A DNA stretch of 28,274 nt from Campylobacterota bacterium. GTDB taxonomy: Bacteria; Campylobacterota; Campylobacteria; Campylobacterales; Sulfurimonadaceae. The first letter of the stretch is position 1, and every line of letters begins with the position of its first letter. The stretch covers positions 1 to 28,274 of the forward strand of contig JAYEKO010000092.1 in assembly GCA_034661055.1 (NCBI GenBank), in the 5' to 3' direction. A program made the position numbers and the translations under genes. Positions 317 through 28,062 of the stretch are shown one piece after another. The notes beneath the pieces were generated by a model. That model did not search any database. It was given only the letters and a program-made list of their open reading frames with translations, and was not told where the DNA came from.

Positions 317-886
317 ATGAGTGTAGAAGTAGAGCTGTTAGAGCGTAGTGGTGGTAAGTGTGAGCTATGTGCCTCAGAGGTAGAGTTAAGTAGCTTTGAA
401 GTAGCTCCAAGTGATGGCAGTAGTGCAGAGTCGATAATGATCTGTTCTACATGTAAATCTCAACTTGAAGATTCAAATAACGTAGATGTCAATCACTGGC
501 GATGTCTCAATGACAGTATGTGGAGTACTCAGCCTGCTGTTCAAGTAGTCGCATACCGTATGTTAAAACAGCTTGCATCAGAGGGTTGGCCTCAAGATTT
601 GCTTGATATGCTCTACCTAGAAGATGAAGTACAAACTTGGGCAGACTCGATTAGCGATGAGGAAGATGATGATAGAGCGCCAACTATTGACAGTAATGGT
701 TCTGTTTTAGAAGGTGGTGATACTGTTGTTATTATTAAAGACTTAGAGGTTAAAGGTGCTGGATTTACTGCAAAGCGTGGAACAGCCGTACGAAATATAT
801 CACTCACGAATAATCCTGAGCAGATTGAAGGTCGTGTTAACGGTACAAAAATTGTAATATTAACCAAGTTTTTAAAGAAGTCTTAA
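317..886 (+). CDS. phnA: PhnA/YjdM family zinc-ribbon protein
   Basis: N-terminal CELC...CSTC zinc ribbon, HWRCLNDSMWS motif, and C-terminal DSNG..L..GDTV.IIKDL.VKG...KRGT.V.NI PhnA domain. Confidence 0.85.
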   Translation: MSVEVELLERSGGKCELCASEVELSSFEVAPSDGSSAESIMICSTCKSQLEDSNNVDVNHWRCLNDSMWSTQPAVQVVAYRMLKQLASEGWPQDLLDMLYLEDEVQTWADSISDEEDDDRAPTIDSNGSVLEGGDTVVIIKDLEVKGAGFTAKRGTAVRNISLTNNPEQIEGRVNGTKIVILTKFLKKS

Positions 887-1552
887 CTTATAGCCACTGC
901 CTGAGATATTAAGAATGCACCCCTTGGGTACTTTCTTTCGTAGTCCTCTTACTAGCGAACGAATCGCATCACTGCTCATACCATCAATGGGCCAGATGGC
1001 ACTTTCTATCTCTTCGTATTTTACAACACGAGAACTATATTGTACCAATAGTGCCATAAACAGATGCTCATTGGTAGTGAGTTTTACTTCTATTTTATTG
1101 CAGATAACACTTTGGGTAAAGGCGTTGTAGTTACACTCATTAGAGAGTTTTAGTGTAAATTTACTTTTGTCTTCAATGCGTTTGATGCTCTGACTCAGAG
1201 CCTCAAGGAGTTTGTCTTTAGTAATGGGTTTAACTAAATACTTTACAAGTTGTAACTCAACTGCTCTCATTAAGTAGTCAGTCTCAGTATGTGCTGTAGC
1301 GATGATAATTTGCGTCTTAAGGTCGCTAGAGCGAATATATTGTGCCATATCAATACCGTTTAGTCGTGGCATATTAATGTCTGTAATAATAATGTCGGGA
1401 TGGTACTCCCTCCAAATATTAAGTGCCTCTTTACCATCTTTAGCTTCATAGACTTTCTTACAGATACGGCGGAGATACTCAACAGCATTTCTTCGAATGT
1501 CCTCTTCATCTTCAACATAGAGTAGGGTAAGGTTTTTTAAAATATCATTCAT
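872..1552 (-). CDS. OmpR/PhoB-family response regulator (REC + winged helix)
   Basis: LYVEDE, ITDINMPRLNG (phospho-Asp), YLVKP, and C-terminal LTTNE...IRSLVRGLRKK...SGSGYKL. The 3' end overlaps phnA by 15 nt. Confidence 0.9.
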   Translation of the reverse strand: MNDILKNLTLLYVEDEEDIRRNAVEYLRRICKKVYEAKDGKEALNIWREYHPDIIITDINMPRLNGIDMAQYIRSSDLKTQIIIATAHTETDYLMRAVELQLVKYLVKPITKDKLLEALSQSIKRIEDKSKFTLKLSNECNYNAFTQSVICNKIEVKLTTNEHLFMALLVQYSSRVVKYEEIESAIWPIDGMSSDAIRSLVRGLRKKVPKGCILNISGSGYKLRLL

Positions 1553-1567
1553 AGTTTACATGTAAAT

Positions 1568-2125
1568 TTAAGGGTGGGGTACTTTTATTGTTGAGTTTAA
1601 TGACCAACCAATAAGCCCCATAAGTCCCACTACAAGAAGAGATGGAACAATATTATAAGTTGCACTTAGATAGACAAGCCAGAGCAAAATAGCACCAAGA
1701 GGTGTTGGAACACCAGTAAAAAACTTATTTACTTCACCAGCATCAGTATGAATGTTAAAGTGAATGAGACGACGAAGTCCTGAAATGACATAGTAGATAC
1801 TTGCTGCTGATGCAAGTATAAGCGTGACTCCTTCTAAATTTACAGCATACACTGCCTGAAAAACTAAAAATACAGGAACTAAAACAAAAGAGAGAAAGTC
1901 TGCAAAAGAGTCTAGTTGAACACCAAACTCATTGGACAGTTTATATTTTCGGGCAATTTTTCCATCAAAAATATCAAAAGCACCACCAATCCACGCCAAA
2001 ATTATGGCAACAAAAAAGTTATTTTGCGTAATGAAATAGGTAGCCATAAGACCTGCTGTGATGTTTACCATGGTAAAGAGGTTTGCTAAGTTAAAGTGTG
2101 ATGAGGGATTATATAAAAAATTCAT
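1568..2125 (-). CDS. pssA: CDP-alcohol phosphatidyltransferase (phosphatidylserine synthase-like)
   Basis: Family signature DxxDGxxAR...GxxLDxxAD (FDIFDGKIARK...FGVQLDSFADF) and FTGVPTP. Confidence 0.75.
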   Translation of the reverse strand: MNFLYNPSSHFNLANLFTMVNITAGLMATYFITQNNFFVAIILAWIGGAFDIFDGKIARKYKLSNEFGVQLDSFADFLSFVLVPVFLVFQAVYAVNLEGVTLILASAASIYYVISGLRRLIHFNIHTDAGEVNKFFTGVPTPLGAILLWLVYLSATYNIVPSLLVVGLMGLIGWSLNSTIKVPHP

Positions 2126-2178
2126 ACGCCATTATAATATACATGTAAAAAAACTGCAAATATAAATTTTAAAGATAT

Positions 2179-2193: not shown

Positions 2194-2213
2194 AGATTAA
2201 GGAGCTATTAAGT

Positions 2214-2266: not shown

Positions 2267-3508
2267 ATGATAGATATAATGTCAGGTATGTTATTAGCTT
2301 CTGCTGCTCCTCAAGAGGGTGGTTTAATGCACACTAAACAAGCAGGCCGCTATGAAACAGTTAAAGAGTTGCCTAAAGAGTCCAACAGTTTTAATCAGAT
2401 GTTTGATTACGCTAACGTTACGGGAAATGTCCGTGCAACTTACATGTATAATAACTTACGAGTTGATGACAATAGTGCTTTTGCTATTGGTGGTACTTTT
2501 GGTTTTGACACCGCCTCTTACAGAGGTTTTAATTTACATGTAAAAGCGACCACATCACAAAACATCAACGCTCTAAACAGTGATGCGGCAAGTTCAAAAT
2601 TGGCTTATGATCTTTTTGATGAGAATGGGGAGTCATTTACCTATCTGTCACATGCCAACCTGCACTATACTAATGATATTTTAGAGATGATGGCAGGACG
2701 TATATTAATTGATACGCCCTATGCTGACAGTGATGACATTCGTATGGCAGCAAATACTTTTGAAGGATTACATGTAAATTCAAGCTTAAATGAAAAGGTT
2801 GACATTCAAGGGTGCTACTTAACGCGTTGGGCAGGATATGACTCTGGTGAAAATCAACAAGAGTTTAAATCTTTAGTAGATGGTGGATTTGGAGTTGCTG
2901 GGGCATCTCTAAACTATAAAATAGATGAAGAAAATATTGCATCATTATGGTACTACTATGTTGATGACATGAGTAGTATAATCTATGCTGAGTATGCGGG
3001 TCATCACTATTTTACAGATGAGTTTCATATGGAGTTTGGGATTCAAGGCAGTAGCATAGGTGAACTTGATGATTCATCTATTAGTGGGAACGTTCTTGGG
3101 GCCATGGCACTATTAGATTATGGACCTTTTTTTGGTGGTTTTTCCTATAACTATGGATATATAGATGAGGGTAAGATGATAACTGACGGCTTTGGTGGTG
3201 GCCCCTACTATACATCTCTTGATGAAGCAACCATTGGAGCAGTATCTGAAGCTGCAATGGGTCAAGATGTAGAGGCATATCGTCTGGGAGCAGGGTATGA
3301 CCTTGAATCTCAAAACATAGTTTTTGAGATGGTCTATGGTAATTTGAGTTCAAGTGATAACCGTGTAAACATTGATGAATTTGATGTTGTCGTAACTTAC
3401 GAAATTGATGATCGTTGGTCTGTTGAAGGTATTTTTATGAAATACACCTCAAAAGATCCAAAAGAAGAGTTTGATCGTGGTCTTTTAAGAGTAGATTACC
3501 ACTTTTAA
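2267..3508 (+). CDS. OprD/Opr-like outer-membrane porin
   Basis: Alternating beta-strand pattern, GR..IDTPYADSDD.RM..NTFEG motif typical of Campylobacterota OprD-like porins, and a C-terminal aromatic residue (RVDYHF). Confidence 0.75.
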   Translation: MIDIMSGMLLASAAPQEGGLMHTKQAGRYETVKELPKESNSFNQMFDYANVTGNVRATYMYNNLRVDDNSAFAIGGTFGFDTASYRGFNLHVKATTSQNINALNSDAASSKLAYDLFDENGESFTYLSHANLHYTNDILEMMAGRILIDTPYADSDDIRMAANTFEGLHVNSSLNEKVDIQGCYLTRWAGYDSGENQQEFKSLVDGGFGVAGASLNYKIDEENIASLWYYYVDDMSSIIYAEYAGHHYFTDEFHMEFGIQGSSIGELDDSSISGNVLGAMALLDYGPFFGGFSYNYGYIDEGKMITDGFGGGPYYTSLDEATIGAVSEAAMGQDVEAYRLGAGYDLESQNIVFEMVYGNLSSSDNRVNIDEFDVVVTYEIDDRWSVEGIFMKYTSKDPKEEFDRGLLRVDYHF

Positions 3509-3562: not shown

Positions 3563-3796
3563 ATGAAATTATTAAGTGAATGTGACAAAAACAGTACGGT
3601 TAAAGTCGTTAAAATAGATACATCAGGTCCGCTAAAACAGCGTCTGATTTCATTAGGAATTATGAAAGATGTCTCCATAAGAGTCCTTGCGCACACTGCA
3701 GCAAAAGGGAGCATAGAGATTAAAGTAGGAAAAATGCAGATTGCTCTGCGCGCTGAAGAGGCGAGCTTAATAGAGGTAGAGAAAATTGAACAGTAA
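3563..3796 (+). CDS. feoA: Ferrous iron transport protein A
   Basis: 77 aa with RLISLGI and IALRAEEA motifs, directly upstream of feoB. Confidence 0.9.
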   Translation: MKLLSECDKNSTVKVVKIDTSGPLKQRLISLGIMKDVSIRVLAHTAAKGSIEIKVGKMQIALRAEEASLIEVEKIEQ

Positions 3797-5933
3797 TATT
3801 GTACTTGAAAATGCAGCGTGTCCTTTAACGGCTAAGCACATTAAAGTAGCCCTTGTAGGTCAGCCAAATGTTGGAAAGAGCATGCTAATTAACTCCATCT
3901 CCAATTCGCATCTACATGTAGGAAACTTTACAGGGGTTACGGTTGAGAAATCAGAAGTTCTTTTTGATTTTAGAGATTACCATTTTACAGTAGTTGATTT
4001 ACCTGGAACGTACGCTTTTACAGACTATACAATTGAAGAGCGAGTAACACGTGATTACCTCTGTGCTGAATCTTATGATTTAATTATTAACGTAGTTGAC
4101 TCTACTAACTTAGAGAAGAACCTACAGTTAAGTGCTGAATTAATGAGTATGAGTAAAAAGATGGTTATTGCTCTAAACATGAGTGATGAAGCAGAAGAAG
4201 AGGGCATTGAGGTCAACGCTGAGTACCTTTCACAACTTTTAGGTGTCCCTGCTATTAAAGTTTCTGCTATGACTAAAATGGGTGTTGATGACTTAATCGA
4301 CATGGTAGTTAAAACACATGAAGCTGACCATCAAGAATCTAAACTTATTTTTAGTGAGCCGGTTGAAGAAGAGATTACTGAAATTGTAAATTATTTACAA
4401 AAACATAAATATGAAGCGGTAAACTCTCATAGAAACATCGCTATTAACCTACTTAAAAACAATCAAAAAACATATGAGAAACTGCACGATAATCCGATCT
4501 GGACAGAACTGCAGCCTATTTTGATAGATGCAAGTAAACATATTGAACTGCATCACAACAGCAATGATGTTAAAGAGGCCTTTGCAGAAGAGTACTACTC
4601 TTTTAACCGTGGTATTATTGCAGAGACCGTGACATGCTGTAAGGATGATGTCCAAGAATTGACACTAACTGAAAAAATAGATAATGTTCTAATTCACCCT
4701 CTTTTTGGATTACCAATATTTCTCTTTTTTATGTGGGGACTGTTTCAACTTACGTTTGAGCTGGGTTCAATTCCAATGGATTGGATTGATGGCTTCTTTG
4801 GATGGTTTGGTGATGTGATTGGTGCTACCATTACCAATGATGATATTCGTTCGCTTGTAGTAGATGGTATTATTGCTGGTGTAGGAGCTGTAGTGCTGTT
4901 TGTGCCTAATATTATAATTTTATTTATAGGTATTGCACTACTTGAATCTACGGGGTATATGTCTCGTGTTGCATTTTTATTAGATGGTTTTTTCCATAAA
5001 TTTGGACTACATGGACAGTCATTTATTCCACTAGTTACAGGTTTTGGTTGCTCTATTCCCGCCTATATGTCGGCACGAATCTTAAAAAATGATCGTGATA
5101 GACTACTGACACTTTTTGTAATTGGGTTTATGAGTTGTGGAGCACGTCTTCCGGTTTATGTACTTTTTGCAGGAGCGTTCTTTGCTCCAGAAGTTGCCGG
5201 TAATGTTCTTTTTGCCATCTATATGATAGGTGTTCTTATTGGTCTAGTTGCTGCAAAAGTCTTAAAAATGACTGCATTTGCAGGTGAGGATGAGCCATTT
5301 GTAATGGAGATGCCAAAATATCGTCTTCCATCACTAAAGCTAATGTGGCATACGGTAACAACAAAAACATGGATGTACTTGAAAAAAGCGGGTACTTTTA
5401 TTGCAGCGGCTTCAATGTTGGTATGGTTTTTAAGCAACTATCCACATAATGACATTTTAAAGAGTGAGTATAGTGCCAAAATAGAGATAGCTACAGAAGC
5501 AGAAGCTGTAGATTTAGAAAACAGACTCTCAGAAAAGATGTTAGAACAGAGCTACCTAGGTCAAATTGGTAAGTTTATTCAACCGGTTTTTGAACCTATT
5601 GGAATGGACTGGAAGATGGCAGTAGCGCTTCAAACCGGACTTGCGGCAAAAGAAGTTGTAGTATCAACTCTTGGCGTTCTCTACTCTTTAGGTGCCGATG
5701 TAGATGAGGAGAATGAGTCATTAGCAAAAATACTCTCTAGTAATATCTCATTTGCCTCTGCTGTGGCTTTCATTGTGGTAATTATGACTTACTTACCGTG
5801 TTTAGCAGCATCTATTGTCTTTACTCGTGAAGCTGGAGGAGTAAAATATTTCTTTTATCTCTTTGTTTTCACTACCTTAACGGCCTATGCTCTGGCATTT
5901 ATTGCGTATAGAATTGCTCTGTTAGTCACTTAA
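3786..5933 (+). CDS. feoB: Ferrous iron transport protein B
   Basis: G1 GQPNVGKS, G2 GNFTGVTVE, G3 DLPG and G4 NMSD, plus a membrane domain with GFGCSIPA and FMSCGARLPVY. TTG start. Confidence 0.97.
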   Translation: MNSNIVLENAACPLTAKHIKVALVGQPNVGKSMLINSISNSHLHVGNFTGVTVEKSEVLFDFRDYHFTVVDLPGTYAFTDYTIEERVTRDYLCAESYDLIINVVDSTNLEKNLQLSAELMSMSKKMVIALNMSDEAEEEGIEVNAEYLSQLLGVPAIKVSAMTKMGVDDLIDMVVKTHEADHQESKLIFSEPVEEEITEIVNYLQKHKYEAVNSHRNIAINLLKNNQKTYEKLHDNPIWTELQPILIDASKHIELHHNSNDVKEAFAEEYYSFNRGIIAETVTCCKDDVQELTLTEKIDNVLIHPLFGLPIFLFFMWGLFQLTFELGSIPMDWIDGFFGWFGDVIGATITNDDIRSLVVDGIIAGVGAVVLFVPNIIILFIGIALLESTGYMSRVAFLLDGFFHKFGLHGQSFIPLVTGFGCSIPAYMSARILKNDRDRLLTLFVIGFMSCGARLPVYVLFAGAFFAPEVAGNVLFAIYMIGVLIGLVAAKVLKMTAFAGEDEPFVMEMPKYRLPSLKLMWHTVTTKTWMYLKKAGTFIAAASMLVWFLSNYPHNDILKSEYSAKIEIATEAEAVDLENRLSEKMLEQSYLGQIGKFIQPVFEPIGMDWKMAVALQTGLAAKEVVVSTLGVLYSLGADVDEENESLAKILSSNISFASAVAFIVVIMTYLPCLAASIVFTREAGGVKYFFYLFVFTTLTAYALAFIAYRIALLVT

Positions 5934-9027: not shown

Positions 9028-9637
9028 AAGCCATATTCTTATTTCTCAAAATATACAAGAGAGTGTGCTTGAGTATCAAGAACTCTTAAAAGGTCATCGT
9101 GTTGTTCCTTTTGTGCAGGATGATTTTAAAGTTGAAGACTCCAGAGCGGTTATTGCTGAGGCCTATATTAGCGAAGATAAGACAAAATATATTATATTAG
9201 CAGCTAAAAGTTTTAATAATGTCTCACAAAATGCACTTTTAAAAGCGCTCGAGGAGCCTCCTAGAAATATTGAGTTCATCTTAATATCTCCATCAAAATC
9301 AATTTTTTTACCCACAATACGTTCTCGTCTTCCTATGAAAATAAAGCAGTCGCAAAAAACTATTATTAATGTAGACATCAACCTAAATAAATTAGATTTA
9401 GCCCATCTTTTTAACTTTGTTAAAGCACATGAGCGGACTAAAAAACATGATGCCAAGCTTCTTATTGAAGCTCTCTACTTTCAAGGAAGTGTTAATGAGT
9501 CAATAATGTTTAATCAAGTTCAGCTAAATGCTTTTGAGACGGCATACCGGTTAATTGATCTTAATGGTCGTTTCAATGTTGTTTTAACGATGTTGTTAAT
9601 GACATTTTTACCAAAGAGAGACAATGTTAATTACTAA
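9014..9637 (+). CDS. holB: DNA polymerase III delta' subunit (short Campylobacterota form)
   Basis: QNALLKALEEPP and LPTIRSRL motifs. The start was moved to ATG 9014 to reduce overlap with hobA. Confidence 0.88.
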   Translation: MSSLKSHILISQNIQESVLEYQELLKGHRVVPFVQDDFKVEDSRAVIAEAYISEDKTKYIILAAKSFNNVSQNALLKALEEPPRNIEFILISPSKSIFLPTIRSRLPMKIKQSQKTIINVDINLNKLDLAHLFNFVKAHERTKKHDAKLLIEALYFQGSVNESIMFNQVQLNAFETAYRLIDLNGRFNVVLTMLLMTFLPKRDNVNY

Positions 9638-10766
9638 ATTATCTGCTCAACAGGATATGAAGTCATATTTAAAAGAGTTGGGTGTCGATGGCGGTGGTAT
9701 CTCTATTTTAGCGTCAAAATCAAAAACACATCTTTTTAAAATAGAGAATTTACATGTAGGTGCTGCCAATATTTTAAAGCAAGATGCCCTCTCAATAGGG
9801 GCAGATTTAGCGGTACCTAAAGGAACAGTTCTAGCTCAAGATTTACATGTAAACGCACTTTTAATCGCAACAACTAAACAGCTTAAACTGCTTAGTAAAA
9901 AAGAGTTGGCACAACCTTTTGGACTAAAAATTTTGGCACAAGAGTTGCAGTCGCATATAAAAGCACACACTCCAAAATCGCCTAAAATAATGGGTGTTAT
10001 TAATGCTAATGAAGACAGCTTTTATGATGGGAGCCGTTTTATTGGAACTCATGCTATAGAGAAGATTATTGCTATGATTGAAGAGGGTGCTAGAATTATT
10101 GATGTAGGAGCACTCTCTTCTCGCCCCGGAAGTACTCCTATTTCACAAAGTGAAGAGTTAGAGCGAATTAAACTCATAATTGATGCAGTAGCAAGTGAAA
10201 AATTATATGCTAAAGTCGATTTCAGTGTCGATAGTTATGTTCCAAAAGTCATTGACTATGCACTTAGCAGTGGCTTTAAAATTGTAAATGACATAACTGG
10301 CTTAGAAGATGATGAGGTGTGTCGTCTAACTGCCTCGTATGATGCAACAGCAGTGATTATGCATATGCAAGGGACACCAACTACTATGCAGAGTAGTCCT
10401 ACTTATGAAAATGTTGTTGCTGAGGTGAGTGATTTTTTTGAGCAGCGTCTGCAAAAAGCAGAAGCTTTTGGAATTAACAAGATAGTTTTAGATGTGGGAA
10501 TCGGGTTTGGAAAAACCTTAGAGCATAATTTAGAGCTTATCGCTTCATTGGAGCATTTTTTGAAATTTCAACAGCCACTTCTTATTGGTGCGAGTCGTAA
10601 GTCAATGATTAATGAAATTGTTGCATCATCAGTAGAAAATCGTTTGAGCGGAACGCTTGCTGTTCATCTTAAAGCTCTTGAAAATGGTGCAGAGATTTTA
10701 CGAGTTCATGATGTTAAAGAGCATGTCCAAGCTGTAAAAGTTTATGAAGCAATTCAAAGTTTTTAA
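9624..10766 (+). CDS. folP: Dihydropteroate synthase with N-terminal extension
   Basis: IMGVINANEDSFYDG, SSRPG, LDVGIGFGK, GASRKS and LRVHDV motifs. Confidence 0.95.
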   Translation: MLITKLSAQQDMKSYLKELGVDGGGISILASKSKTHLFKIENLHVGAANILKQDALSIGADLAVPKGTVLAQDLHVNALLIATTKQLKLLSKKELAQPFGLKILAQELQSHIKAHTPKSPKIMGVINANEDSFYDGSRFIGTHAIEKIIAMIEEGARIIDVGALSSRPGSTPISQSEELERIKLIIDAVASEKLYAKVDFSVDSYVPKVIDYALSSGFKIVNDITGLEDDEVCRLTASYDATAVIMHMQGTPTTMQSSPTYENVVAEVSDFFEQRLQKAEAFGINKIVLDVGIGFGKTLEHNLELIASLEHFLKFQQPLLIGASRKSMINEIVASSVENRLSGTLAVHLKALENGAEILRVHDVKEHVQAVKVYEAIQSF

Positions 10767-13156: not shown

Positions 13157-13549
13157 TTAATTAGGTGTAAAGTTAAGGCATACTGAGTTAATACAGTAGC
13201 GCAGACCGGTTGGGGCAGGGCCATCAGGAAAAACATGTCCTAAGTGAGCCTCGCAGCGATTGCAGAGTACTTCAACACGAGTCATACCATGAGTGCTATC
13301 ACGTCGCTCTTGTATAGCGTCATCGTCAATACTCTCATAAAAACTTGGCCATCCTGTTCCTGAGTCAAATTTAGTGTCAGATTCAAAAAGAGGAAGACCA
13401 CAACATTTACATGTATATTTTCCCTCAGCCTTGTAGTCATAATACTCACCACTAAAAGGAGCTTCAGTCCCATGTTTGCGTGCTACTTGAAACTCATTTG
13501 GCGTGAGAAGTTTTTTCCACTCCTCACTACTTTTTACTATCTTATTCAA
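13157..13549 (-). CDS. msrB: Peptide-methionine (R)-S-oxide reductase
   Basis: [29 protein letters not shown] and RYCINS motifs, with two CxxC. Confidence 0.96.
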
Positions 13550-15101
13550 AAAATTCCTTTATTTCTAAATTAATATCATGAAAATCTTCATCATTAAAAA
13601 TTACATGTATATTTTTTTTTGCACGACCAAGTGCATAACAAAATTTCATAGTATCTTCAGGATTGATTCCAGAAAGTATGACATAATTTTGTTGTAGTGA
13701 TGCTATTTCATCATATTGGGCAATTAAATGGGTGTCAAAAGCTTGATTTACAAGGCTTTGAGAACCATCAAAAAGTGAAATTTCTTCTTCCACATAGTCA
13801 TGCATTTCATCAAATAGAGCGTGTGAAAATGATTTGTTAGGGGTAATAATAAGAGACTTCTCATCCGCTTCTCTATTTTTTAATATCTTTTTAAACGCTA
13901 AAATTGTCTCCATATAGATGTTACCCTCTGAAAACTTTATATTAGAGATGTTTTTATAGCTATCATGACTCTTTAAGTCTTTTTTGCATAACTCAAGTGT
14001 GCTCTGTGTAACACGGTAGCTTTTAGAGAGCGTAGTGCTATTTCCTTTAGCTTTGTCCGTATCTGCAGAGACAAAGTGAAGTGTGGAGCCTTTTTGTATG
14101 TGCATAAGATAGAATATGAACTCATCTGAGAGTAGTTCAATATCATCACAGATAATGACATCAGCTATGTTGAATTTTTTCTTCATCATTTTAGGTGTAA
14201 TTTCAATGGGTTCAAGCGGTTTTTTATAGAGTGCTTGAGCATGTTGTGTTAAGAGCTCTTTGGGAGTGATAATGTCTATAGTGCTAATATCAACATCAAC
14301 AATTGCATGCTCAATGGCAGCAAGAAGTCGATGCTTCATAATCTCACACGCTGTGTGTGTCGGTTCAATAATAAGGAATCTCTTTTTTGGAGTCTCTATT
14401 TTTTGAATTAAAACTTTTAAAAGCATAAGCGTACTTCTACCAGAGCCATAGGGTCCAATAAGAGTGCTGATGTCTGAGAATTCAGTGTCTATATAGTTTT
14501 TCTGTTCTTCATTTACAACAGCGTGCTCTATATGCTCATTATCACTTAAGAGCGTGTACTGCATGAATAGAGTTGAAATGATGGATGTTGTCGTAATGTT
14601 AAGCGAATCAACAAATGCAGTTTCTAGCTTATCTCTTAGGGAGTCTAAGGTCTCATCATTAAAAAGTACACGCGATTTTGGAATTAGCTGATGAAATGAC
14701 TCATCAAGTAGATCAAACTCTTCTTGCTTTAGGTCATTAAAGAGAATAAAGCCTTTGGTAATATTGAGGTCTTTGTGTAAAACTTCATTAAACTTTTGAT
14801 TTATCACATGCAAAGGAGAATCAAATACAACACTGCTGGACTTTTTTGAAGAGGGGAGTCTTGAAGAGACAGTAGCATCTTTTATGGTGTCAAACTCCCA
14901 ATCAATATCTTCAAATAAAACAATACCTCTGTTGGGTAAAATCATAAGAGATGCCACATCAACTGTTTTTTGGTGATGATATATTTTTGGATTCTCATAA
15001 AGTATGACATCACAAGACGCTACATACTCTTTAACAAGCACCATTAAAGAAGTATCAGTAGAACGTTGGTGAGTTTTTTTCTTAAATAGAGAAAAGGCCA
15101 T
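13542..15101 (-). CDS. Degenerate superfamily-1 (UvrD-like) helicase-fold protein
   Basis: Walker A-like GPYGSGRS, Walker B-like IICDD, LSKSYR motif and C-terminal YALGRAKK (motif VI-like). Confidence 0.55.
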
Positions 15102-15529: not shown

Positions 15530-15618
15530 GAATGCCCTTTTGAAATTATGCTGACTCATCTACACTAAATCGTTTAAAAACGTTATGGCAGATAATGCTG
15601 TGCATACTTTATACTTTC

Positions 15619-17488: not shown

Positions 17489-17575
17489 CAAGTTTTCCTT
17501 ATGTTAGGGTGTTTTTTAAGCCCTATGAATTTACATGTAAAAATTATAGCCAAAGATTCATGTATAATGACACAC

Positions 17576-18283
17576 ATGAAAGATAGAGTATTTGAAAAAG
17601 CCATAAAGAAGCAGTTTGAATTTGATGAGGATGTCGCAGCAGTTTTTGATGATATGCTTGAACGTTCTGTTCCATTTTACAGTGAAGCGATGACTTTAAG
17701 TCAGCAGATAGCAATTAATGCTTTAAAAGATGGAGGTGTTTTGTATGATTTAGGCTGCTCAACAGCAACACTGTTACTAAATATTGAACGAGCATTAAAT
17801 AGCGAAGTGACACTAATTGGAATTGACAACTCTAAGGCGATGCTCCAGCATGCTGCAAAAAAACTTGCTATCTATAATTCAGGTATAGCACTGCAAGAAG
17901 GTGATATTTTAGAGTATGCATATGAGCGTGCAGTTGTCATAATCAGTAACTATACCTTACAGTTTATTCGACCACTTCAACGTGAGAAATTAGTGCAGAA
18001 AATTGCTAACTCTTTAGAAGATGAGGGTATTTTTATTTTTAGTGAAAAAATTGTTAGTGAAGATAAAAAGCTCAATAAAGAGTTAATTGATATCTACTAT
18101 GAATTCAAAAAAGAGCAGGGCTATAGCATCTATGAGATTATGCAAAAACGTGAGGCTTTAGAAAATGTACTTATTCCCTACAGCGCAAAAGAGAATATTG
18201 AGATGTGCTGTAGCAATGGCTTTAAGCGTTGCGAGATGATTTTTAGATGGGCCAATTTTGCCACATTTGTAGCAAGAAAGTAG
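17576..18283 (+). CDS. cmoA: Carboxy-S-adenosyl-L-methionine synthase
   Basis: FEFDE.VA.VFDDM..RSVPFY, YDLGCST, NYTLQF and KREALENVL motifs. The likely start is MKDRVF. Confidence 0.92.
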   Translation: MKDRVFEKAIKKQFEFDEDVAAVFDDMLERSVPFYSEAMTLSQQIAINALKDGGVLYDLGCSTATLLLNIERALNSEVTLIGIDNSKAMLQHAAKKLAIYNSGIALQEGDILEYAYERAVVIISNYTLQFIRPLQREKLVQKIANSLEDEGIFIFSEKIVSEDKKLNKELIDIYYEFKKEQGYSIYEIMQKREALENVLIPYSAKENIEMCCSNGFKRCEMIFRWANFATFVARK

Positions 18284-21182: not shown

Positions 21183-23552
21183 ATGAAAAATAGTAAATTT
21201 TTAATTAATACACCGATTATATCGAAACGATTTTTATTTAGTGTACCAATAATATTTATTATTGTCGCAACTTTGAAAATAGCTTACTCTTATGATTTAA
21301 TGAAAGAGGCTGAACGAACTATTATTTTTGATGAATCAAAGGTCTTGAGTGATTTTATGATGACGCATCGGAGTTACTATCAAAACCTCTACATCAATAA
21401 AGATATAGTCCTCAATAAAAAAACACTTCCTGGTCTTCCTGCTTTTAGTGCTTATGATATATCTCGAGAATTTTCACATCGCAATATACAAAAAATTGTA
21501 CTTCAGACGGTTTCAGACCGTGCAAGAAACAGTAAAAATATGGCTGATAGAGTTGAAATGAAAGCTATTGATGCATTTCGTAATGATAAAACGCTAAATG
21601 AGTACTTTGAGTATATTGAAGATGTTGATCAAAATTATTATCAATATGCTATTCCTCTTCATATTAAAAAAACATGTTTAGAATGTCATGGCAGTAAAGA
21701 TAGTGCACCTCAATTTATTCAAGAAATATATGACATGGCTTATGATTATAAGCTTGGTGAAGTTCGAGGTATTTTAAGTGTTAAAGTACCTGAGGGCAAG
21801 TTAAGTAGTTTTTTTAATACCACTTTTTTACTTTTAGTCATTTATGATACTTTACTGCTAATAGGACTATTTATCTTTATGCAGCAACTTCTTAAAAAGT
21901 TTAGACACTATAACACAAAGCTAGAAGAGGTTGTTGATAAGCAAAATGAAGAACTTCATCAAAATCTAGTTGAGTTAGATGGCTATAAAATAGCCATTGA
22001 TAATAGTGCGTTGGTCTCAAAGACGGACTTAAAGGGTATTATTACTTATGTTAATGATAGCTTTTGTAAACATATGGGATATTCTCGTAAAGAGCTAGTG
22101 GGAAATAATCACAATATGATTAAATCAGCAGAAGTTGATAAATCATTTTTTGCAAAAATGTGGCAGAAAATAGAAAATAAAAAAGTGTGGAGAGGTATTA
22201 TTGTCAATATAAAAAAGGATAATGGAGCTGTTTATCATGACACCACTATTACTCCAATTTTTGATGATAATAATAATATAAAAGAGTATATCGCGGTACG
22301 TCACGATGTAACAGAAGTGATTCAGCAAAGAATTGAGATTAAAAATCTCTATTCAATAGACAGTCTAACACAAGTCCCTAATAGAAATAAATTATTAATA
22401 GATATGAAAGAGTTACAAGCATCCCAAGTGGTTCTATTTAATATTGATGGGTTTAAAAACATTAATGATTTTTATGGAATAGAAGCAGGCGATAAACTAC
22501 TCATTCAGCTTGCCAACTACATTAATGGCGAGATAGAGCATAATAACTTGTTTAAACTCTATAGACTTCATTCTGATGAATTTGCAGTTCTTGGCGATGG
22601 CACACTAGGTATAGATGAGTTTGTAGTTATTATGCATTCGTATCAAAAAAAGATTGAACAACATCTCTTTGATGTCTTATTGGAACAAGAGGTAAAGATT
22701 TCAGTAACTCTGGGGTTTGCCATGGGTAAAAATGCGTTAATTAAAGCTGATATGGCCTTAAAACTTGCACAAAGCTCTAAAAATGAGTACATTATTCATG
22801 ATGACTCTCTTCAACTTGAAAAGCATTATGAAGAAAATATTGAAAAAGCAAAACTTATTAAGTACTCCATTGAAAATAGGACGATAGTACCTTATTTTCA
22901 GCCAATATTGAACTTAAAAACGGAAAAAATCAGTAAATATGAAGCACTGGTCAGAATGATTGATGGAGACAATGTTATTGCCCCTGGAGGGTTTTTACAT
23001 ATTGCAAAACAGTCCCGTACCTACTTTAAAGTTACAGAAATTATGATAGAAGAGACACTCAAGCAGCTCAAGCTACATAACAGCACACTCTCCATTAATA
23101 TATCAATGGAAGATATTGCCAATAGAGATATGGTAGATTTTATTGTAGAGAAACTTAAGCAGTGTGAGGATGCAACACGAGTAGTTTTTGAAATACTAGA
23201 GAGTGAAAGTGTGCAAGACTATGAACTGGTAAGGCACTTCATTCATGAAATAAAAAGCTATGGCGTTAAAATTGCTATAGATGATTTTGGAAGCGGCTAC
23301 TCCAACTTTTTACATGTACTTGAACTAGAAGCTGACTTTTTAAAGATTGACGGCTCTCTTATTAAAAATATTGCAACCGATCGTCAGTCTCTAATCTTAG
23401 TTGAGGGTATTGTAGATTTTTCAAATAGATTAGGCATGAAAACAATTGCAGAGTTTGTTGAAAATGAGGAGATATTAGATATTTTAAAAGAGATTGGTGT
23501 TGACTTTGCGCAGGGTTATTTCATTGGAAAACCTTCTCCCTTAATTGTTTAG
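21183..23552 (+). CDS. Membrane c-di-GMP phosphodiesterase: periplasmic heme-c (DUF3365/Tll0287-like) sensor, PAS, degenerate GGDEF, EAL
   Basis: Two TM helices flank CLECH...YKLGEVRGILSV. PAS SKTDLKGIITYVND, GGDEF site reads HSDEF, and YEALVR, FEILE, DDFGSGYS, KIDG and AQG are intact. Confidence 0.9.
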   Translation: MKNSKFLINTPIISKRFLFSVPIIFIIVATLKIAYSYDLMKEAERTIIFDESKVLSDFMMTHRSYYQNLYINKDIVLNKKTLPGLPAFSAYDISREFSHRNIQKIVLQTVSDRARNSKNMADRVEMKAIDAFRNDKTLNEYFEYIEDVDQNYYQYAIPLHIKKTCLECHGSKDSAPQFIQEIYDMAYDYKLGEVRGILSVKVPEGKLSSFFNTTFLLLVIYDTLLLIGLFIFMQQLLKKFRHYNTKLEEVVDKQNEELHQNLVELDGYKIAIDNSALVSKTDLKGIITYVNDSFCKHMGYSRKELVGNNHNMIKSAEVDKSFFAKMWQKIENKKVWRGIIVNIKKDNGAVYHDTTITPIFDDNNNIKEYIAVRHDVTEVIQQRIEIKNLYSIDSLTQVPNRNKLLIDMKELQASQVVLFNIDGFKNINDFYGIEAGDKLLIQLANYINGEIEHNNLFKLYRLHSDEFAVLGDGTLGIDEFVVIMHSYQKKIEQHLFDVLLEQEVKISVTLGFAMGKNALIKADMALKLAQSSKNEYIIHDDSLQLEKHYEENIEKAKLIKYSIENRTIVPYFQPILNLKTEKISKYEALVRMIDGDNVIAPGGFLHIAKQSRTYFKVTEIMIEETLKQLKLHNSTLSINISMEDIANRDMVDFIVEKLKQCEDATRVVFEILESESVQDYELVRHFIHEIKSYGVKIAIDDFGSGYSNFLHVLELEADFLKIDGSLIKNIATDRQSLILVEGIVDFSNRLGMKTIAEFVENEEILDILKEIGVDFAQGYFIGKPSPLIV

Positions 23553-24450: not shown

Positions 24451-25332
24451 GTGATTTCTCTCCCCTCTGCCGTAGAAAAATTTACATTTTACGGTAGAGA
24501 CTTCTATGTTAAACGTGATGACCTTCTTGATTCTTATTTAAGCGGTAATAAATTTCGTAAACTCTACACACTCTACAACACCTCTTCATCAACATACAAA
24601 AAAGTTATCTCTTACGGCGGAACACAATCAAATGCGATGCTCTCTATTGCCTATCTATGTCATTTAAAAGGTTGGGAGTTTGAGTATTACTGCAGGCCAG
24701 TTGCATTACATGTAAAAAAGATGAATGAGGGTAATTTAGCGCAAGCCTTAAGGTTTGGAATGAGACTCCATGAAGTAGAACATGAGCATTTTGAACAAGA
24801 GGTTACAAAACTATTTTTTAATGTAGATTCAAACATATGCTTAATTGCTCAAGGTGGAGCAGATAAAATTGCTCATAAAGGAGTGAAAGTTTTAGCAGAT
24901 GAGATTACATTATGGAAAGATCAAAATAAGATTTCAAATTTACATGTAATTACTCCATCTGGTACAGGAACTACCGCTTTTTATTTGGCTAAAGAGCTTG
25001 AGTGTGACTGCTATACAACAGCTGTAGTTGGCTCTACAGAGTATTTAAATGAGGAGCTTAAGGCTCTAGGTCAGATGCCTAAAAATTTACATGTAATTGC
25101 TACAGAAAAAAAATACCATTTTGCAAAGCTCTACAGAGAGTTTTTAGCGCTCTATTTAGAGTTAAAAGAGTGCGGTATTGAGTTTGATCTTCTGTACGCT
25201 CCTAAAACATGGTTGGCACTTCTGGAAAATTTAGATGCAATTAATGGAGATATTTTATATGTTCATAGTGGTGGAGTCTATGGAAATGGTACAATGTTAG
25301 AGAGATATAGACATAAAGGGTGGCTTAGATGA
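24451..25332 (+). CDS. PLP-dependent ACC deaminase/D-cysteine desulfhydrase family protein
   Basis: VKRDDL, SGNKFRK (PLP lysine), GGTQSNAM, SGTGTT, FDLLYAPK and HSGG motifs. Confidence 0.85.
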   Translation: MISLPSAVEKFTFYGRDFYVKRDDLLDSYLSGNKFRKLYTLYNTSSSTYKKVISYGGTQSNAMLSIAYLCHLKGWEFEYYCRPVALHVKKMNEGNLAQALRFGMRLHEVEHEHFEQEVTKLFFNVDSNICLIAQGGADKIAHKGVKVLADEITLWKDQNKISNLHVITPSGTGTTAFYLAKELECDCYTTAVVGSTEYLNEELKALGQMPKNLHVIATEKKYHFAKLYREFLALYLELKECGIEFDLLYAPKTWLALLENLDAINGDILYVHSGGVYGNGTMLERYRHKGWLR

Positions 25333-25539: not shown

Positions 25540-26613
25540 TTAGTTTTTGTTGATGGCATTTAAGTCTTCAAATGCACTCTCTACACGTGAAATAAGGCCC
25601 TCTTGACCTGCACGTAGCCATTTTCTTGGATCGTAATACTTTTTATTTGGCTTATCATCGCCTTCAGGATTTCCAATTTGTCCTTGAAGATAGCCCTCAT
25701 GTTTTTCATAGTACTCTTTAACGCCACTCCATGTTGCCCACTGTGTGTCAGTGTCAATATTCATCTTAACAACACCGTAGCCAATAGCTTCTCGAATCTC
25801 ATCTAGGCTTGACCCTGATCCACCATGGAATACAAAGTCAACCTCTTTCTCTTTAGTTGAATACTTTTTTGCAATATATTTTTGAGAGTTGTCTAAAATT
25901 GAGGGGGTCAGTGTTACATTTCCTGGCTTGTAAACTCCATGAACATTACCAAATGAAGCGGCAACAGTGAAACGCTTACTCACTTTAGATAGCTCCTCGT
26001 AAGCATAAGCTACCTCTTGGGGTTGGGTGTAGAGTAGGGCATTATCAATATCTGTATTGTCAACACCATCTTCTTCACCGCCAGTTACACCAAGTTCAAT
26101 TTCAATAGTCATTCCTAGTTGATCCATACGCTCCAAGTACGTTTTACATGTAGCGATGTTATCTTCAATGGGCTCTTCAGAGAGATCAAGCATATGAGAG
26201 CTAAATAGAGGGATGCCATAAGCTTCAAAGTGAGTTTCTGATGCATCAAGTAGTGCATCAATCCAAGGAAGAAGTTTTCGTGCAGCATGGTCTGTGTGTA
26301 AGATGACTGCTACACCATAAGCTTCTGCCATCATATGGACATGCTGTGCACCAGCAATTGCTCCGGTAATGGAAGCAAAATCATCTTCATTGCTTAATCC
26401 TTTGCCGGCAAAATAACTAGCACCACCGTGAGAGAATTGAATAATAACAGGAGAGTTTGCATTACGCGCAGCTTCTAGTACACCATTGATCGAGTCAGTG
26501 TTGACAACATTGATTGCTGGGAGAGCAAATACTCCCTCTTTAGCTGCCTTAAAAACCTTTTGAACATCGTCACCACTTAATACACCCGGTTTTACTAAAT
26601 CTAATACACCCAT
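25540..26613 (-). CDS. fbaA: Class II fructose-bisphosphate aldolase
   Basis: HTDHA, FSSHMLDLSE, EIELGVTGGEEDG, GNVHGVYKPG, FHGGSGS and KMNIDTD motifs. Confidence 0.97.
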   Translation of the reverse strand: MGVLDLVKPGVLSGDDVQKVFKAAKEGVFALPAINVVNTDSINGVLEAARNANSPVIIQFSHGGASYFAGKGLSNEDDFASITGAIAGAQHVHMMAEAYGVAVILHTDHAARKLLPWIDALLDASETHFEAYGIPLFSSHMLDLSEEPIEDNIATCKTYLERMDQLGMTIEIELGVTGGEEDGVDNTDIDNALLYTQPQEVAYAYEELSKVSKRFTVAASFGNVHGVYKPGNVTLTPSILDNSQKYIAKKYSTKEKEVDFVFHGGSGSSLDEIREAIGYGVVKMNIDTDTQWATWSGVKEYYEKHEGYLQGQIGNPEGDDKPNKKYYDPRKWLRAGQEGLISRVESAFEDLNAINKN

Positions 26614-26685
26614 GAAAAATCCTCTTTTTGATATGAGGATTATAACAATTTTTTGGTATGATAAACCTCAAATGAGGATAAAATT

Positions 26686-28062
26686 TTGAACTTTATAATG
26701 ACACTATTTTTTTTAGTAACAACGGCACTTTTTGCACAACATCCAGAAGCGTTTTCTACACTAGCCAAGAGCTTTGAAGAAGATACAAAAGCTATAGAGT
26801 CTATGCGAGATGAATTATACTTTTCTGAGCATGAGACACTTTTTAGTGAGTATGAAAAGAGGGTCAATGAGACTTTTGAGGTGGGATTTGATTTAGATGA
26901 TGCCATACACAATGGAGAAGATACCTCAAAACTTAAAGAGCGTTACCTTAAAGCGTTACGTGAGTTAAAAGATGATCAGGATGCTCTAGACTTAATCTAC
27001 GTTCAGGCTCTAAATGATGCTATTAAAGTGGATGATATTAGGCTGTTTACTTACTTAATGCAACATCCAATGCGACCCCTAAAAAATGAACGTATTCGTA
27101 ATAGAGCGCTTCAATATTATGAGATTAAACGTAAAAAAATTAAAATTATGGAAGTTGAACTGTTACGACAAGAGAAAATGTTTGATGCCTACAGCAGAAA
27201 AATAGCCTTTGAAGAGCAGCAGTCTTATGAAGAACACTTAAAAGTTCTAACAGCGTCTCAAGCAAAGACAATCCGTCAAAAAAGTGTTAAGTCCAGACGT
27301 AATAGTGTGCTTGTCTCAACAGAAACAAGGAAGAGTGCTGTTGTGTTTTTTGCCGAAAACTTTAATGCCTATGCGGTGACCTTGACCTTGAAGTTTAAGA
27401 GTCTGCAAAACTACAGTGGCAATAAAAAACTCCCTCTATATGTTGAACTGATGCCACAAGAGCGCAAGCAGATCATTACAATCCAACGTGATGATCCAAG
27501 ATTAAAAGCAAGTTATCAATCAACTTACGGATGGGTAATGGGAGTGGCATCGGCACAGCATGATGACAGTTACATGTATTTAGTTCCTTTTAAAAAAGGG
27601 AGCAGTGTTAGAGTCTCTCAAGGCTTTAATGGAGCTGCAAGTCATAAAGGCTATTCTCGTTATGCAGTTGACTTTGCTGTTTCTACGGGTACACCAATAT
27701 ATGCAGCACGCTCTGGTAAAATAGTCTCGACAAAATCTACAGGAGATAGAGGTGGATTTGATCGCAGTTTTGGGAAGTATGCCAACTTTATTGTTATAGA
27801 GCACAGTGATCAGACCCTTGGCAAATATTATCATCTTAAAAAGGGTGGCGTCAATGTAGCGGTTAACCAGATGGTAAAGAGGGGTGACCTTATTGGCTAT
27901 AGTGGTAACACCGGCTACTCAAGTGGACCACACCTGCACTTTAGTGTCAGTAAAGTCGATCCAAAATATAGACAACGACCTATTACAGTCCCATTTAAAT
28001 TACAAACTTTAAATGGAGTTGTTACCACTCCTAAGCGGGGAGACAGATATGAGGTTTATTAG
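26686..28062 (+). CDS. Secreted M23-family metallopeptidase with N-terminal helical region
   Basis: Signal peptide, H...YAVDF, GTPIYAARSG, YYHL and GYSGNTGYSSGPHLHF motifs. Confidence 0.88.
   Translation: MNFIMTLFFLVTTALFAQHPEAFSTLAKSFEEDTKAIESMRDELYFSEHETLFSEYEKRVNETFEVGFDLDDAIHNGEDTSKLKERYLKALRELKDDQDALDLIYVQALNDAIKVDDIRLFTYLMQHPMRPLKNERIRNRALQYYEIKRKKIKIMEVELLRQEKMFDAYSRKIAFEEQQSYEEHLKVLTASQAKTIRQKSVKSRRNSVLVSTETRKSAVVFFAENFNAYAVTLTLKFKSLQNYSGNKKLPLYVELMPQERKQIITIQRDDPRLKASYQSTYGWVMGVASAQHDDSYMYLVPFKKGSSVRVSQGFNGAASHKGYSRYAVDFAVSTGTPIYAARSGKIVSTKSTGDRGGFDRSFGKYANFIVIEHSDQTLGKYYHLKKGGVNVAVNQMVKRGDLIGYSGNTGYSSGPHLHFSVSKVDPKYRQRPITVPFKLQTLNGVVTTPKRGDRYEVY

Follow-up and report, generated by a model that had tools for sequence, protein, structure and literature searches.

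The window and its copies of the palindrome

This work concerns an 8-bp palindrome, TACATGTA, that recurs along a 28,274-nt stretch of DNA, referred to here as the window (contig JAYEKO010000092.1 of the Campylobacterota assembly GCA_034661055.1). Loci anchored on aspartate kinase place the window in the Sulfurimonadaceae, in a clade of metagenome-assembled genomes (MAGs) beside Sulfuricurvum, which bears out the Campylobacterota origin assumed in the first-pass annotation described next, and its genes carry ordinary housekeeping roles (feoB, lysC, folP, msrB, cmoA, nth, fba and others). A first-pass annotation, made from the letters of the window, had reported at least 18 exact copies of the palindrome and likened it to HIP1, the highly iterated palindrome of cyanobacteria. 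Exactly 18 were counted, from 448 to 27578; dinucleotide-preserving shuffles of the window contained 0.60 ± 0.83 copies with a maximum of 4, and none of the 100 shuffles reached 18. The hexamer ACATGT occurs 21 times, 18 of them inside TACATGTA; the remaining three had also been noticed, correctly at 13233 and 21672, while the first lies at 13046 and not at 13047. Eight copies extend to the 10-mer TTACATGTAA (1557, 2535, 2769, 9844, 17532, 24707, 24941 and 25088) and four to the 12-mer TTTACATGTAAA (starts at 1555, 2533, 9842 and 17530), both as annotated. Sixteen copies are coding and two intergenic (1557 and 2140), where 15 and three had been given; the coding frames read L/I-H-V 11 times rather than 10, with T-C three times and Y-M-Y twice as described. 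The claim that all nine LHV tripeptides found are spelled YTA-CAT-GTA does not hold: the open reading frames (ORFs) of the window contain 11, of which ten are so written and one is TTG-CAT-GTG.

The window was compared with five congeners of its own genome (G001 to G005; DNA identity to the window 70–78%), in which 7 of 11, 5 of 8, 6 of 10, 2 of 8 and 3 of 9 alignable motif sites are kept, against 8–14.5% for all 8-mers. The first copy (448..455) lies in the ORF at 317-886 in the frame xxT-ACA-TGT-Axx, encoding S-T-C-K, and is kept in G004, G001 and G002. Both intergenic copies follow, one at 1557..1564 within a 12-mer that begins at 1555 and the other at 2140..2147, kept in G004 only. Three copies fall in a porin-like ORF (2267-3508): one at 2441..2448 (Y-M-Y) and one at 2769..2776 (L-H-V, a 10-mer) are not kept in the congeners, and a third at 2535..2542 (L-H-V, with the 12-mer from 2533) is kept in G004, G002, G003 and G005. 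The copy in feoB (3913..3920; gene 3786-5933; L-H-V) is kept in G004, G001, G002 and G003. Two L-H-V copies lie in folP (9624-10766). One of them (9751..9758) occupies an alignment column shared by seven motif-rich Sulfurimonadaceae rows, the window included, and by the motif-poor loci L044 and L057; the other (9844..9851, with the 12-mer from 9842) is not kept in the congeners. In folP as a whole, members of the rich Sulfurimonadaceae clade have motif positions in common, as do members of Sulfurospirillum, and the two families do not share them.

On the minus strand, msrB (13157-13549) carries a T-C copy at 13408..13415 that is kept in G004, G001, G002 and G005, and the neighboring ORF at 13542-15101 an I-H-V copy at 13602..13609 that is not kept in the congeners. 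The L-H-V copy at 17532..17539, part of the 12-mer from 17530 and kept in G004, G001, G002 and G005, sits at residue 10 of the cmoA ORF (17501-18283), so that a later start codon would make it intergenic. Further L-H-V copies are found in a GGDEF/EAL ORF (23311..23318; ORF 21183-23552) and, each as a 10-mer, three times in the ORF at 24451-25332 (24707..24714, 24941..24948 and 25088..25095). The last two copies lie in a minus-strand fructose-bisphosphate aldolase ORF (26145..26152; ORF 25540-26613; T-C) and in an M23 peptidase-like ORF (27571..27578; ORF 26686-28062; Y-M-Y). The window also holds a gene for an HU/IHF-like nucleoid protein (15245-15559, minus strand); such proteins are candidate readers of flexible alternating pyrimidine-purine words, and nothing ties this gene to the motif.

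A signal at the level of the DNA

The assembly to which the window belongs (G000; 1,908,352 bases in 92 contigs, 36.2% G+C, 83% estimated completeness) contains 899 copies of TACATGTA, which makes it the commonest of all 8-mers there, 13.7 times more frequent than the 66 copies expected from composition. The next most over-represented palindrome reaches 5.8 times, with 40 copies. Every one of the 67 contigs longer than 10 kb carries the word, at 0.22–0.89 copies per kb, and the genome-wide, HIP1-like mark proposed in the first-pass annotation is thereby borne out well beyond the window and, as set out below, in whole lineages. When synonymous codons were permuted within each gene (20 runs over 1580 crude ORFs of at least 120 aa, 1.68 Mb), a procedure that preserves proteins and codon usage, 123.5 ± 7.5 copies were obtained with a maximum of 134, compared with the 725 observed, a 5.9-fold excess. 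A complete motif-poor relative of equal G+C (G350, 35.7%; first 400 kb) has 11 copies, rank 8948 among its 8-mers, and G000 is 17 times denser. Under a maximal-order Markov model 793 of the 899 copies are expected; the figure is circular and thus uninformative, because the 7-mers of the model occur almost only within the motif.

By location, 727 copies of G000 are coding and 166 non-coding, which puts 81% inside genes, and the spacers hold 112 copies where 5.4 are expected. The frame-independent pattern described for the window recurs at this scale: coding copies divide 495/186/44 among the three frames, and 68% of them encode L/I-H-V. Spacers between convergent, co-directional and divergent genes have similar densities (0.95, 0.84 and 0.71 copies per kb), and the placement therefore follows no promoter or terminator logic. 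The word is thus a signal of the DNA itself, for which composition, codon usage, protein motifs or a mobile element do not account. Dispersed repeats of the repetitive extragenic palindromic (REP) or miniature inverted-repeat transposable element (MITE) type were rejected in view of flanks that are at background beyond ±4 and of the genic position of most copies, and a restriction-modification target was rejected because the site is enriched rather than avoided and the G000 methylase described below has no nuclease beside it. As a separate observation, some non-palindromic 8-mers in the coding sequences of G000 are equally over-represented against the synonymous shuffle, namely CTCTTTAG (156 versus 24), CACTCTCT (108 versus 18.5) and CACTGCTT (116 versus 21), together with GCACTCTC and AGCACTCT; these are specific to the sense strand and may reflect codon-pair bias or a second signal.

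The flanks of the half-site in G000 are A (0.60), T (0.67) and T (0.71), symmetric on the two sides and at background beyond position -3 or -4. Both the flanking T and the flanking A are present at 452 of the 899 sites, a fraction of 0.51 being expected if the sides were independent, and they are thus independent; this symmetry and independence fit a symmetric reader of duplex DNA. The preferred extended forms are TTACATGTAA and then ATTTACATGTAAAT in the genus of the window and CTTTACATGTAAAG in Sulfurospirillum. The dialect lies at position -3, where A prevails in G000 and G002 (0.60) and C (0.47) in G219, a complete Sulfurospirillum-type chromosome whose flanks read C (0.47), T (0.66) and T (0.92). 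Three Sulfurimonadaceae MAG loci of 51% G+C, 15 points above G000 (L008 with 9 copies in 21 kb, L010 with 2 in 8.5 kb and L017 with 12 in 21 kb), still have TACATGTA as their top palindrome; their flanks are C/G-rich at -2 to -4 and T at -1 remains at 0.85.

The peak formed by the exact word is sharp: the 24 one-mismatch words occur 6–82 times each in G000. The most depleted neighbors are those that lack one flank (VACATGTA/TACATGTB), with ratios of observed to expected (O/E) of 0.22–0.37 against the synonymous shuffle. Two sets of loci from rich relatives gave an O/E of 7.2 for the motif with 0.17 for the one-flank words and 5.1 with 0.59, and G219 gave 9.2 with 0.51; the corresponding values are 0.82 and 0.85 in loci of poor Sulfurimonadaceae and 2.1 (12 versus 5.6 copies) and 1.34 in G350. 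This sink of neighboring words is therefore specific to rich genomes. The deamination neighbor TATATGTA/TACATATA has an O/E of 0.47 in G000 versus 0.45 in poor relatives, and total CATG is at expectation (0.99–1.07). Spacing in G000 is Poisson-like (coefficient of variation 0.95 versus 1.00 ± 0.03), with no motif-free stretch longer than 11.5 kb. Pairs of copies 10–19 bp apart number 15, when about four are estimated by chance (807 gaps × 10/1938). Twelve of these pairs are non-coding; five of the twelve fall where genes converge, most follow a stop codon closely, and the non-coding pairs fold as perfect hairpins of -7 to -17 kcal/mol.

The word leaves an imprint on proteins. The tripeptide LHV has an O/E of 5.2 in G000, 6.0 in G219 and 2.9 in G002, compared with 0.93 in G350 and with 2.3 and 1.5 in two poor locus sets, both of which are redundant samples; TCK reaches 6.5, 5.5 and 6.4 in the three rich genomes, and the poor sets gave none observed for 4.0 expected, 1.0 and, in G350, 1.41. 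LHV is written with TACATGTA in 383 of 402 cases in G000 and 269 of 292 in G219 and in only 2 of 63 in poor relatives. The suspicion that the DNA word drives the choice of codons, and perhaps of residues, is upheld on both counts.

For the conservation of sites, 650 kb of G002 were used, which gave 449 reciprocal-best orthologue pairs with G000, codon-aligned over 446 kb at 70.7% nucleotide identity. Of the G000 sites in these genes 77 of 200 are identical in G002 (binomial p 6e-29), and 77 of 108 G002 sites are identical in G000 (p 1e-54), compared with 7–13% for control 8-mers. In the two frames used most often, which account for 190 of the 200 sites, amino-acid identity is lower at motif sites (31–39%) than at controls (43–50%); the word thus occupies, or itself produces, positions where proteins are less conserved. 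Where the amino acids agree, the nucleotides are identical at 57 of 74 motif sites versus 18% of controls (p 4e-28), which means that silent positions are held. The same genes carry 200 sites in G000 and 108 in G002, and the G002 state opposite sites found only in G000 is mostly a near-cognate word, indicating that gain continues. The comparison of orthologous sites, which the first-pass annotation had suggested for relatives, thus yielded both retention above control words and gain from near-cognate ones. What creates and retains the word acts on the double helix and does so in opposition to protein constraint.

Distribution and candidate drivers

Among 41 relatives, the rich genomes comprise all six of the genus (421–1014 copies) and three other genera of the family (1155–1299); the remaining 32 have 2–58 copies, comparable to the reversed control word. 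The order-wide sample of 401 genomes was scanned with the 10-mer TTACATGTAA, for which the reversed word gives 0–9 copies per genome, and genomes with at least 30 copies were called rich. This threshold is reached by 31 of 38 genomes of family f23 (up to 1496 copies), by 8 of 39 in the Sulfurimonadaceae (f1) and by none of 324 in 24 other families, where the largest count is 9. A second draw of 301 high-quality genomes, all from the same order, reproduced this distribution. Family f23 was recognized as Sulfurospirillaceae by aspartate kinase, the LysC of G159 being identical to that of Sulfurospirillum arcachonense DSM 9755 and the LysC of G197 to that of Sulfurospirillum sp. Kmv13; the S. arcachonense genome itself has 1128 copies of TACATGTA.

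The trait varies at short range as well. Within f23, genus g53 is weak (5–21 copies of the 10-mer), and in g2, the genus nearest the Sulfurimonas loci, counts of 340, 96 and 32 in three genomes contrast with 0–16 in 20 others. A five-protein tree needs at least six changes of state. Sisters of the rich genome G044 (894 copies) have 91, 31 and 101 copies versus 21, 12 and 23 of the control word and look like relics in decay. The word thus decays in sister lineages, and its distribution is patchy. One such relic genome, G048, has three copies exactly 66 bp apart (G048:C47:336-475; 336, 402 and 468), which suggests a word inside a tandem or CRISPR-like repeat unit.

Its placement along a chromosome was followed in G219 (genus g44; 3,175,729 bp in one contig), sampled as forty evenly spaced 20-kb stretches (800 kb) and read contiguously over 540 kb around the GC-skew switch. 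The samples hold 444 copies where 22 are expected (20-fold; 9.2-fold over the codon-preserving shuffle). As in G000, no 8-mer is more frequent, and the copies are evenly spread (index of dispersion 1.28). A dip of four samples near the skew switch coincides with low-G+C blocks at 1.48–1.54 and 1.66–1.81 Mb, and density at the switch itself (1.55–1.66 Mb) is normal. These blocks beside the terminus (G219:C1:1480000-1540000 and 1660000-1810000; G+C 0.31–0.38), in which the motif is 3–5 times rarer, are probably acquired islands. Density and G+C are positively correlated across 120 windows of 10 kb (Spearman 0.56, p 5e-11), with 1.25 copies per 10 kb below 0.34 G+C and 6.3–6.8 at core G+C. The trend is opposite to what composition predicts for an AT-rich word and assigns the mark to long-resident DNA. 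The word accumulates in long-resident core DNA and is scarce in AT-rich, probably acquired blocks. A terminus-excluded pattern like that of Noc or SlmA sites was rejected, the dip being due to the low-G+C blocks, and so were regional sites of the Noc, SlmA, MatP or parS type, given the even density around G219.

Viral contigs scanned with the 14-mer yielded at least 120 loci, and 105 among the matches listed carry a single chance copy. The only dense contig among them, L246 (IMGVR_UViG_3300025301_001295; 16 kb, 52% G+C), concentrates its five TACATGTA copies in a stretch of 220 bp, and enrichment throughout phage genomes was accordingly rejected. The array (4813-5031; 15845-16063 of the viral record) lies among many TACATG/ACATG iterons, just downstream of an ORF for a Cys-rich protein of 97 aa (4510-4803), and resembles an origin or operator made up of sites for a protein that recognizes TACATGTA. 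It indicates that proteins reading the word exist and is silent on genome-wide enrichment in phages.

The nested CATG directed attention to DNA methylases. The single D12-class adenine methylase of G000 (326 aa, with a DPPY motif) is encoded at G000:C91:11104-12081 (L090 1369-2349, minus strand) between sppA and xseA, with no adjoining nuclease. In the congeners G004, G002 and G001 the gene likewise lies beside xseA, with sppA one gene further off. Homologues are named "Modification methylase NlaIII" or "DNA adenine methylase" in their source records, and a structure search with the enzyme found no solved relative. In the first sample 7 of the 9 rich genomes had the gene, as did 5 of the 32 poor ones, and in the order-wide sample homologues occur in 113 of 401. 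In g44 the median number of 10-mer copies is 1127 with the methylase versus 258 without it (p 0.003), and in f1 the methylase is found in 6 of 8 rich versus 3 of 31 poor genomes (p 0.0006), neither value being corrected for phylogeny. The enzymes of seven rich Sulfurimonadaceae form one long-branched clade (Shimodaira-Hasegawa-like approximate likelihood ratio test, SH-aLRT, 87). In poor genomes of three families, by contrast, the enzymes cluster closely on short branches, the pattern expected of a mobile gene. Members of the short-branched cluster are spread over Campylobacterota and Bacteroidota and appear to be mobile. The very rich genome G043 has two D12 copies, one of which (G043:C57:13322-14314; L121) belongs to this cluster and has an in-frame TAA, features that mark it as a decaying second copy.

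A whole-family search did not find a D12-family gene in the genome of S. arcachonense, nor in G045, G003 or G005, and in the complete rich genome G168 no D12, N6_N4 or C5 methylase was found. Homologues are present in 78 of 324 genomes from families at motif background. The NlaIII-type orphan methylase is thus associated with the motif and is neither necessary nor sufficient for it, and it was downgraded as a candidate driver. We read it as a resident orphan that accompanies the signal, as in HIP1, without defining it. Other candidates fared no better. C5 methylases (PF00145; none in G002, G009 and G168) and N6_N4 methylases (PF01555; none in G000) do not track the motif, N6_Mtase (PF02384) occurs in all five genomes tested with a match of only 26 bits in G000, and no methylase family is common to all rich genomes. 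Vsr (PF03852) was found in none of 9 rich genomes; with TATATGTA/TACATATA not specially depleted and C5 methylases missing as above, Dcm/Vsr very-short-patch repair was rejected. VirB4/ComB4-type secretion (PF03135) was likewise found in none of the 9 and was rejected as a driver, and ComEC and secretins are present in rich and in poor genomes alike. A screen for identity outliers that might reveal a horizontally moved reader (G000 against 38% of G219) returned housekeeping genes only, and the genes flanking the 12 non-coding tight pairs gave no pointer to a reader. The first-pass annotation had proposed a methylation- or repair-driven motif and the profiling of methyltransferases and competence genes against its abundance: the association with a CATG methylase stands, a requirement for it does not, repair of the Vsr type is unsupported, and the competence genes do not discriminate.

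Candidate functions and comparison with known systems

The three mechanisms offered in the first-pass annotation, methylation or repair, an uptake signal and a nucleoid-protein site, are all retained as candidates here. We tentatively favor the view that TACATGTA is a self-DNA tag in DNA uptake or recombination, a reading reached by analogy and to which we would give somewhat less than an even chance. A symmetric, presumably dimeric and highly sequence-specific protein would read the duplex word, and its preference for the outer flanks may have drifted between lineages. The word could then act as a self tag in natural transformation, at uptake or during processing, or as a site that promotes recombination. 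The nested CATG is probably N6-adenine methylated in most carriers by the orphan NlaIII/HpyI-type D12 methyltransferase, and this methylation would modulate the signal rather than define it. New copies would arise when near-cognate words are converted to the exact word, whether by selection or by recombination-biased replacement, and such conversion would empty the one-mismatch neighborhood. A more specific proposal is correspondingly more doubtful: that the word is a palindromic, methylation-independent uptake or recombination signal in the Sulfurospirillaceae and several lineages of Sulfurimonadaceae, with a dimeric reader that has moved between lineages. If true, it would give Campylobacterota a first self-recognition word of the uptake type, which would also be the first palindrome among such words.

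The parallels behind this reading are with the DNA uptake sequences (DUS) of Neisseriaceae and the uptake signal sequences (USS) of Pasteurellaceae, namely flank dialects, hairpin pairs after genes, scarcity in low-G+C DNA and the phylogeny of an accessory trait, and with recent work on HIP1 in transformation. According to the consulted part of that work, HIP1 sites in Synechococcus 7002 raise transformation 7-fold when unmethylated and more than 100-fold when methylated (10.1101/2024.09.10.611283), and a further source, also consulted in part, describes an abundance of HIP1 that tracks type IV secretion genes and proposes a DUS hypothesis for HIP1 (PMC13756078).

Several points weigh against a self tag. 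Unlike the HIP1 correlation, no VirB4-type secretion accompanies the word in the nine rich genomes, ComEC and secretins are non-discriminating, and a reader protein was found neither among the candidate families nor among the neighbors of tight pairs nor in the identity-outlier screen. The methylase that would modulate the signal is missing from 9 of 31 rich Sulfurospirillaceae, S. arcachonense among them, and from G168, is present in the 78 background genomes already mentioned, shows no trend with the motif in genus g80, and is carried by four of six weak-motif genomes in g53; its associations elsewhere are uncorrected for shared ancestry. The Poisson-like spacing is not more even than chance, and USS spacing is reported to be so. 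To our knowledge, the known uptake sequences are not palindromes, and the literature searched holds no uptake, transformation, binding or methylation experiment on these organisms. Finally, the conservation of sites and the sink of neighboring words would be expected equally of a role in chromosome structure or of a conversion drive alone.

The first of these, a role in chromosome or nucleoid architecture, we consider unlikely. Here TACATGTA would be a putative binding site for an abundant symmetric protein that organizes or compacts DNA, for which the symmetric 14-bp recognition with AT-rich flanks, the roughly one site per 2 kb throughout the chromosome and the strong conservation of sites are all suited. 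The word consists of alternating pyrimidine-purine steps, which are flexible, and the viral array indicates that proteins able to read it exist. A structural function was also proposed for HIP1 by Xu, Lawrence and Durand, who argue from periodicity in the consulted part of their article (PMC5861425). An essential system of this kind should not, however, vary within a genus as the word does in g2, nor decay in sister lineages. The word also has no regional pattern and a normal density at the terminus, unlike Noc, SlmA, MatP and parS sites, and its razor-sharp peak with depleted neighbors differs from families of binding sites, which usually tolerate variants.

A methylation-centered system of the HIP1 type, in which an orphan NlaIII-type methylase, perhaps with an extended recognition site, plays the leading part and the word arises or is selected for an effect of methylation (such as strand discrimination in repair, the timing of replication or gene control), appears rather improbable. 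Its attractions are the association of methylase and motif abundance in g44 and f1, the contrast between the long-branched resident clade of rich Sulfurimonadaceae and the short-branched three-family cluster of poor genomes, the position of the gene between sppA and xseA, where it lacks a neighboring nuclease, and the names of its homologues; Elhai, in the consulted part of his article, linked HIP1 to two nested orphan methylases (PMC4390886). The enzyme is nevertheless dispensable, as the 1128 copies of S. arcachonense, the genomes G045, G003 and G005, and the complete G168 with none of the three methylase families attest, and its presence in background and weak g53 genomes makes it insufficient. 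Total CATG at expectation and the lack of a methylase family common to all rich genomes point the same way.

That the word has no function at all, being produced by a molecular drive in which biased repair or gene conversion makes the exact word and nothing reads it, is quite improbable. A drive would account for a one-mismatch neighborhood emptied only in rich genomes and for the gains in G000 from near-cognate words, and the gain or loss of a single enzyme would give both patchiness and decay. The repair enzyme Vsr was not found in the nine rich genomes, however, the deamination neighbor is depleted no more in G000 than in poor relatives, and the most depleted words are flank variants, not C-to-T changes. 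Sites held over 30% nucleotide divergence also speak against a drive, with the reservation that continuing site-directed conversion would hold them too; for HIP1, conservation of this sort is taken by Xu et al., in the part of the text consulted, to point to selection and not replenishment (PMC5861425).

We regard as very improbable a palindromic Chi-like site, at which a putative AddAB- or RecBCD-type helicase-nuclease would recognize the word, protect self DNA and stimulate recombination. A changed specificity of a universal enzyme would explain patchiness without a gene that is present or absent, in keeping with the tests made here, in which no gain or loss of a gene tracks the motif, and the Chi site of E. 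coli is an 8-mer of similar abundance and over-representation. Known Chi sites are, on the other hand, asymmetric, G-rich and strand-skewed, and the symmetric flank preference of TACATGTA points to a dimer on duplex DNA rather than to scanning of a single strand. Chi-like action is one of two mechanisms proposed for HIP1 in the consulted part of the transformation study (10.1101/2024.09.10.611283). There is next to no chance that the excess is an artefact of base composition, codon usage, a favored peptide or a dispersed mobile element: an AT-rich word in an AT-rich genome, most often encoding L/I-H-V and largely predicted by a (circular) Markov model, might invite that reading, which is refuted by the codon shuffle, the much lower density in an equal-G+C genome, the use of all three frames and spacers, the rarity of the word in the most AT-rich DNA, flanks that fall to background beyond ±3 or 4 and so leave no surrounding element, and tripeptides whose excess is missing in poor relatives.

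Among known systems, DUS and USS also occur about once per 1–2 kb, independently of frame, in genes and in spacers. USS flanks are AT-rich, as are those of TACATGTA, paired DUS in Neisseria form hairpins after genes, as the tight pairs do here, and both systems share with the word a scarcity in probably acquired DNA; Campylobacterota, for their part, are known for natural transformation. A conserved core with lineage dialects in the outer positions is a further likeness, as described for DUS in the consulted part of the source (PMC3630211). DUS and USS are asymmetric and found in both orientations, whereas TACATGTA and its flanks are palindromic, its one-mismatch variants are depleted with no halo, its spacing is Poisson-like, and sister species lack it.

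Within the same phylum, transformation in C. jejuni discriminates methylated RAATTY (CtsM) and Helicobacter M.HpyI/NlaIII methylates CATG. These are short palindromic sites of adenine methylation that are used, or usable, as marks of self, and the genome of the window shares with them an NlaIII-type orphan methylase. They are short and not reported to be hyper-abundant, whereas TACATGTA is an 8- to 14-bp word that is enriched, conserved and persists without the methylase. Chi, likewise an over-represented 8-mer, serves to identify self DNA to the recombination machinery; it is asymmetric, strand-skewed and read on single-stranded DNA, unlike a word symmetric in itself and in its flanks.

HIP1 was described three decades ago and is still puzzling, and nearly all cyanobacteria have both HIP1 and its methylases, which leaves little contrast for comparative genetics. 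TACATGTA belongs to the HIP1 class of highly iterated palindromes, as an analogue of HIP1 (GCGATCGC) and not HIP1 itself. Both are exact 8-bp palindromes that rank as the commonest or near-commonest 8-mer, lie in genes in every frame and in spacers, are conserved beyond background at silent sites too, and extend over lineages with exceptional poor ones; both enclose a 4-bp site for an orphan D12-class adenine methylase (for TACATGTA a candidate, NlaIII-type by the names of its homologues), and for both the function is unsettled among the same three hypotheses. The differences are as clear. TACATGTA is AT-rich with a CATG rather than a GATC core, its hosts are Campylobacterota, it has one nested methylase candidate, a dispensable one, in place of two, and it is much patchier, differing within one genus, with no VirB4-type secretion found in nine rich genomes. 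Its 14- to 20-fold over-representation is at the low end of the 15- to 300-fold given for HIP1 in the consulted part of Xu et al. (PMC5861425).

The suggestion that the mark might be undescribed agrees with our search of the literature in full text, which covered few subscription journals and contained no description of TACATGTA as a bacterial genomic feature; a term search of Elhai 2015, as far as that article was covered, gave no CATG and nothing on non-cyanobacterial cases (PMC4390886). What is new, within the HIP1 class, is the different word and phylum, the dispensable methylase and a patchy distribution that includes cultured strains. The distortion of LHV and TCK has to be reckoned with when codon or peptide statistics are computed for these genomes, and the word may matter for genetic tools in organohalide-respiring and sulfur-oxidizing Campylobacterota. 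The same type of signal has arisen independently in a second phylum, which provides a culturable and naturally variable counterpart to HIP1. The contrasts are sharp: a rich family beside 24 at background, rich and poor species in one genus, some of them complete, decaying lineages, rich genomes with and without the nested methylase, and at least one rich organism in a culture collection (S. arcachonense DSM 9755). They make the identity of the reader, the role of methylation and the choice between uptake and chromosome structure testable, and a reader identified through a trait that is polymorphic within genera and in cultured strains could, by analogy, explain HIP1.

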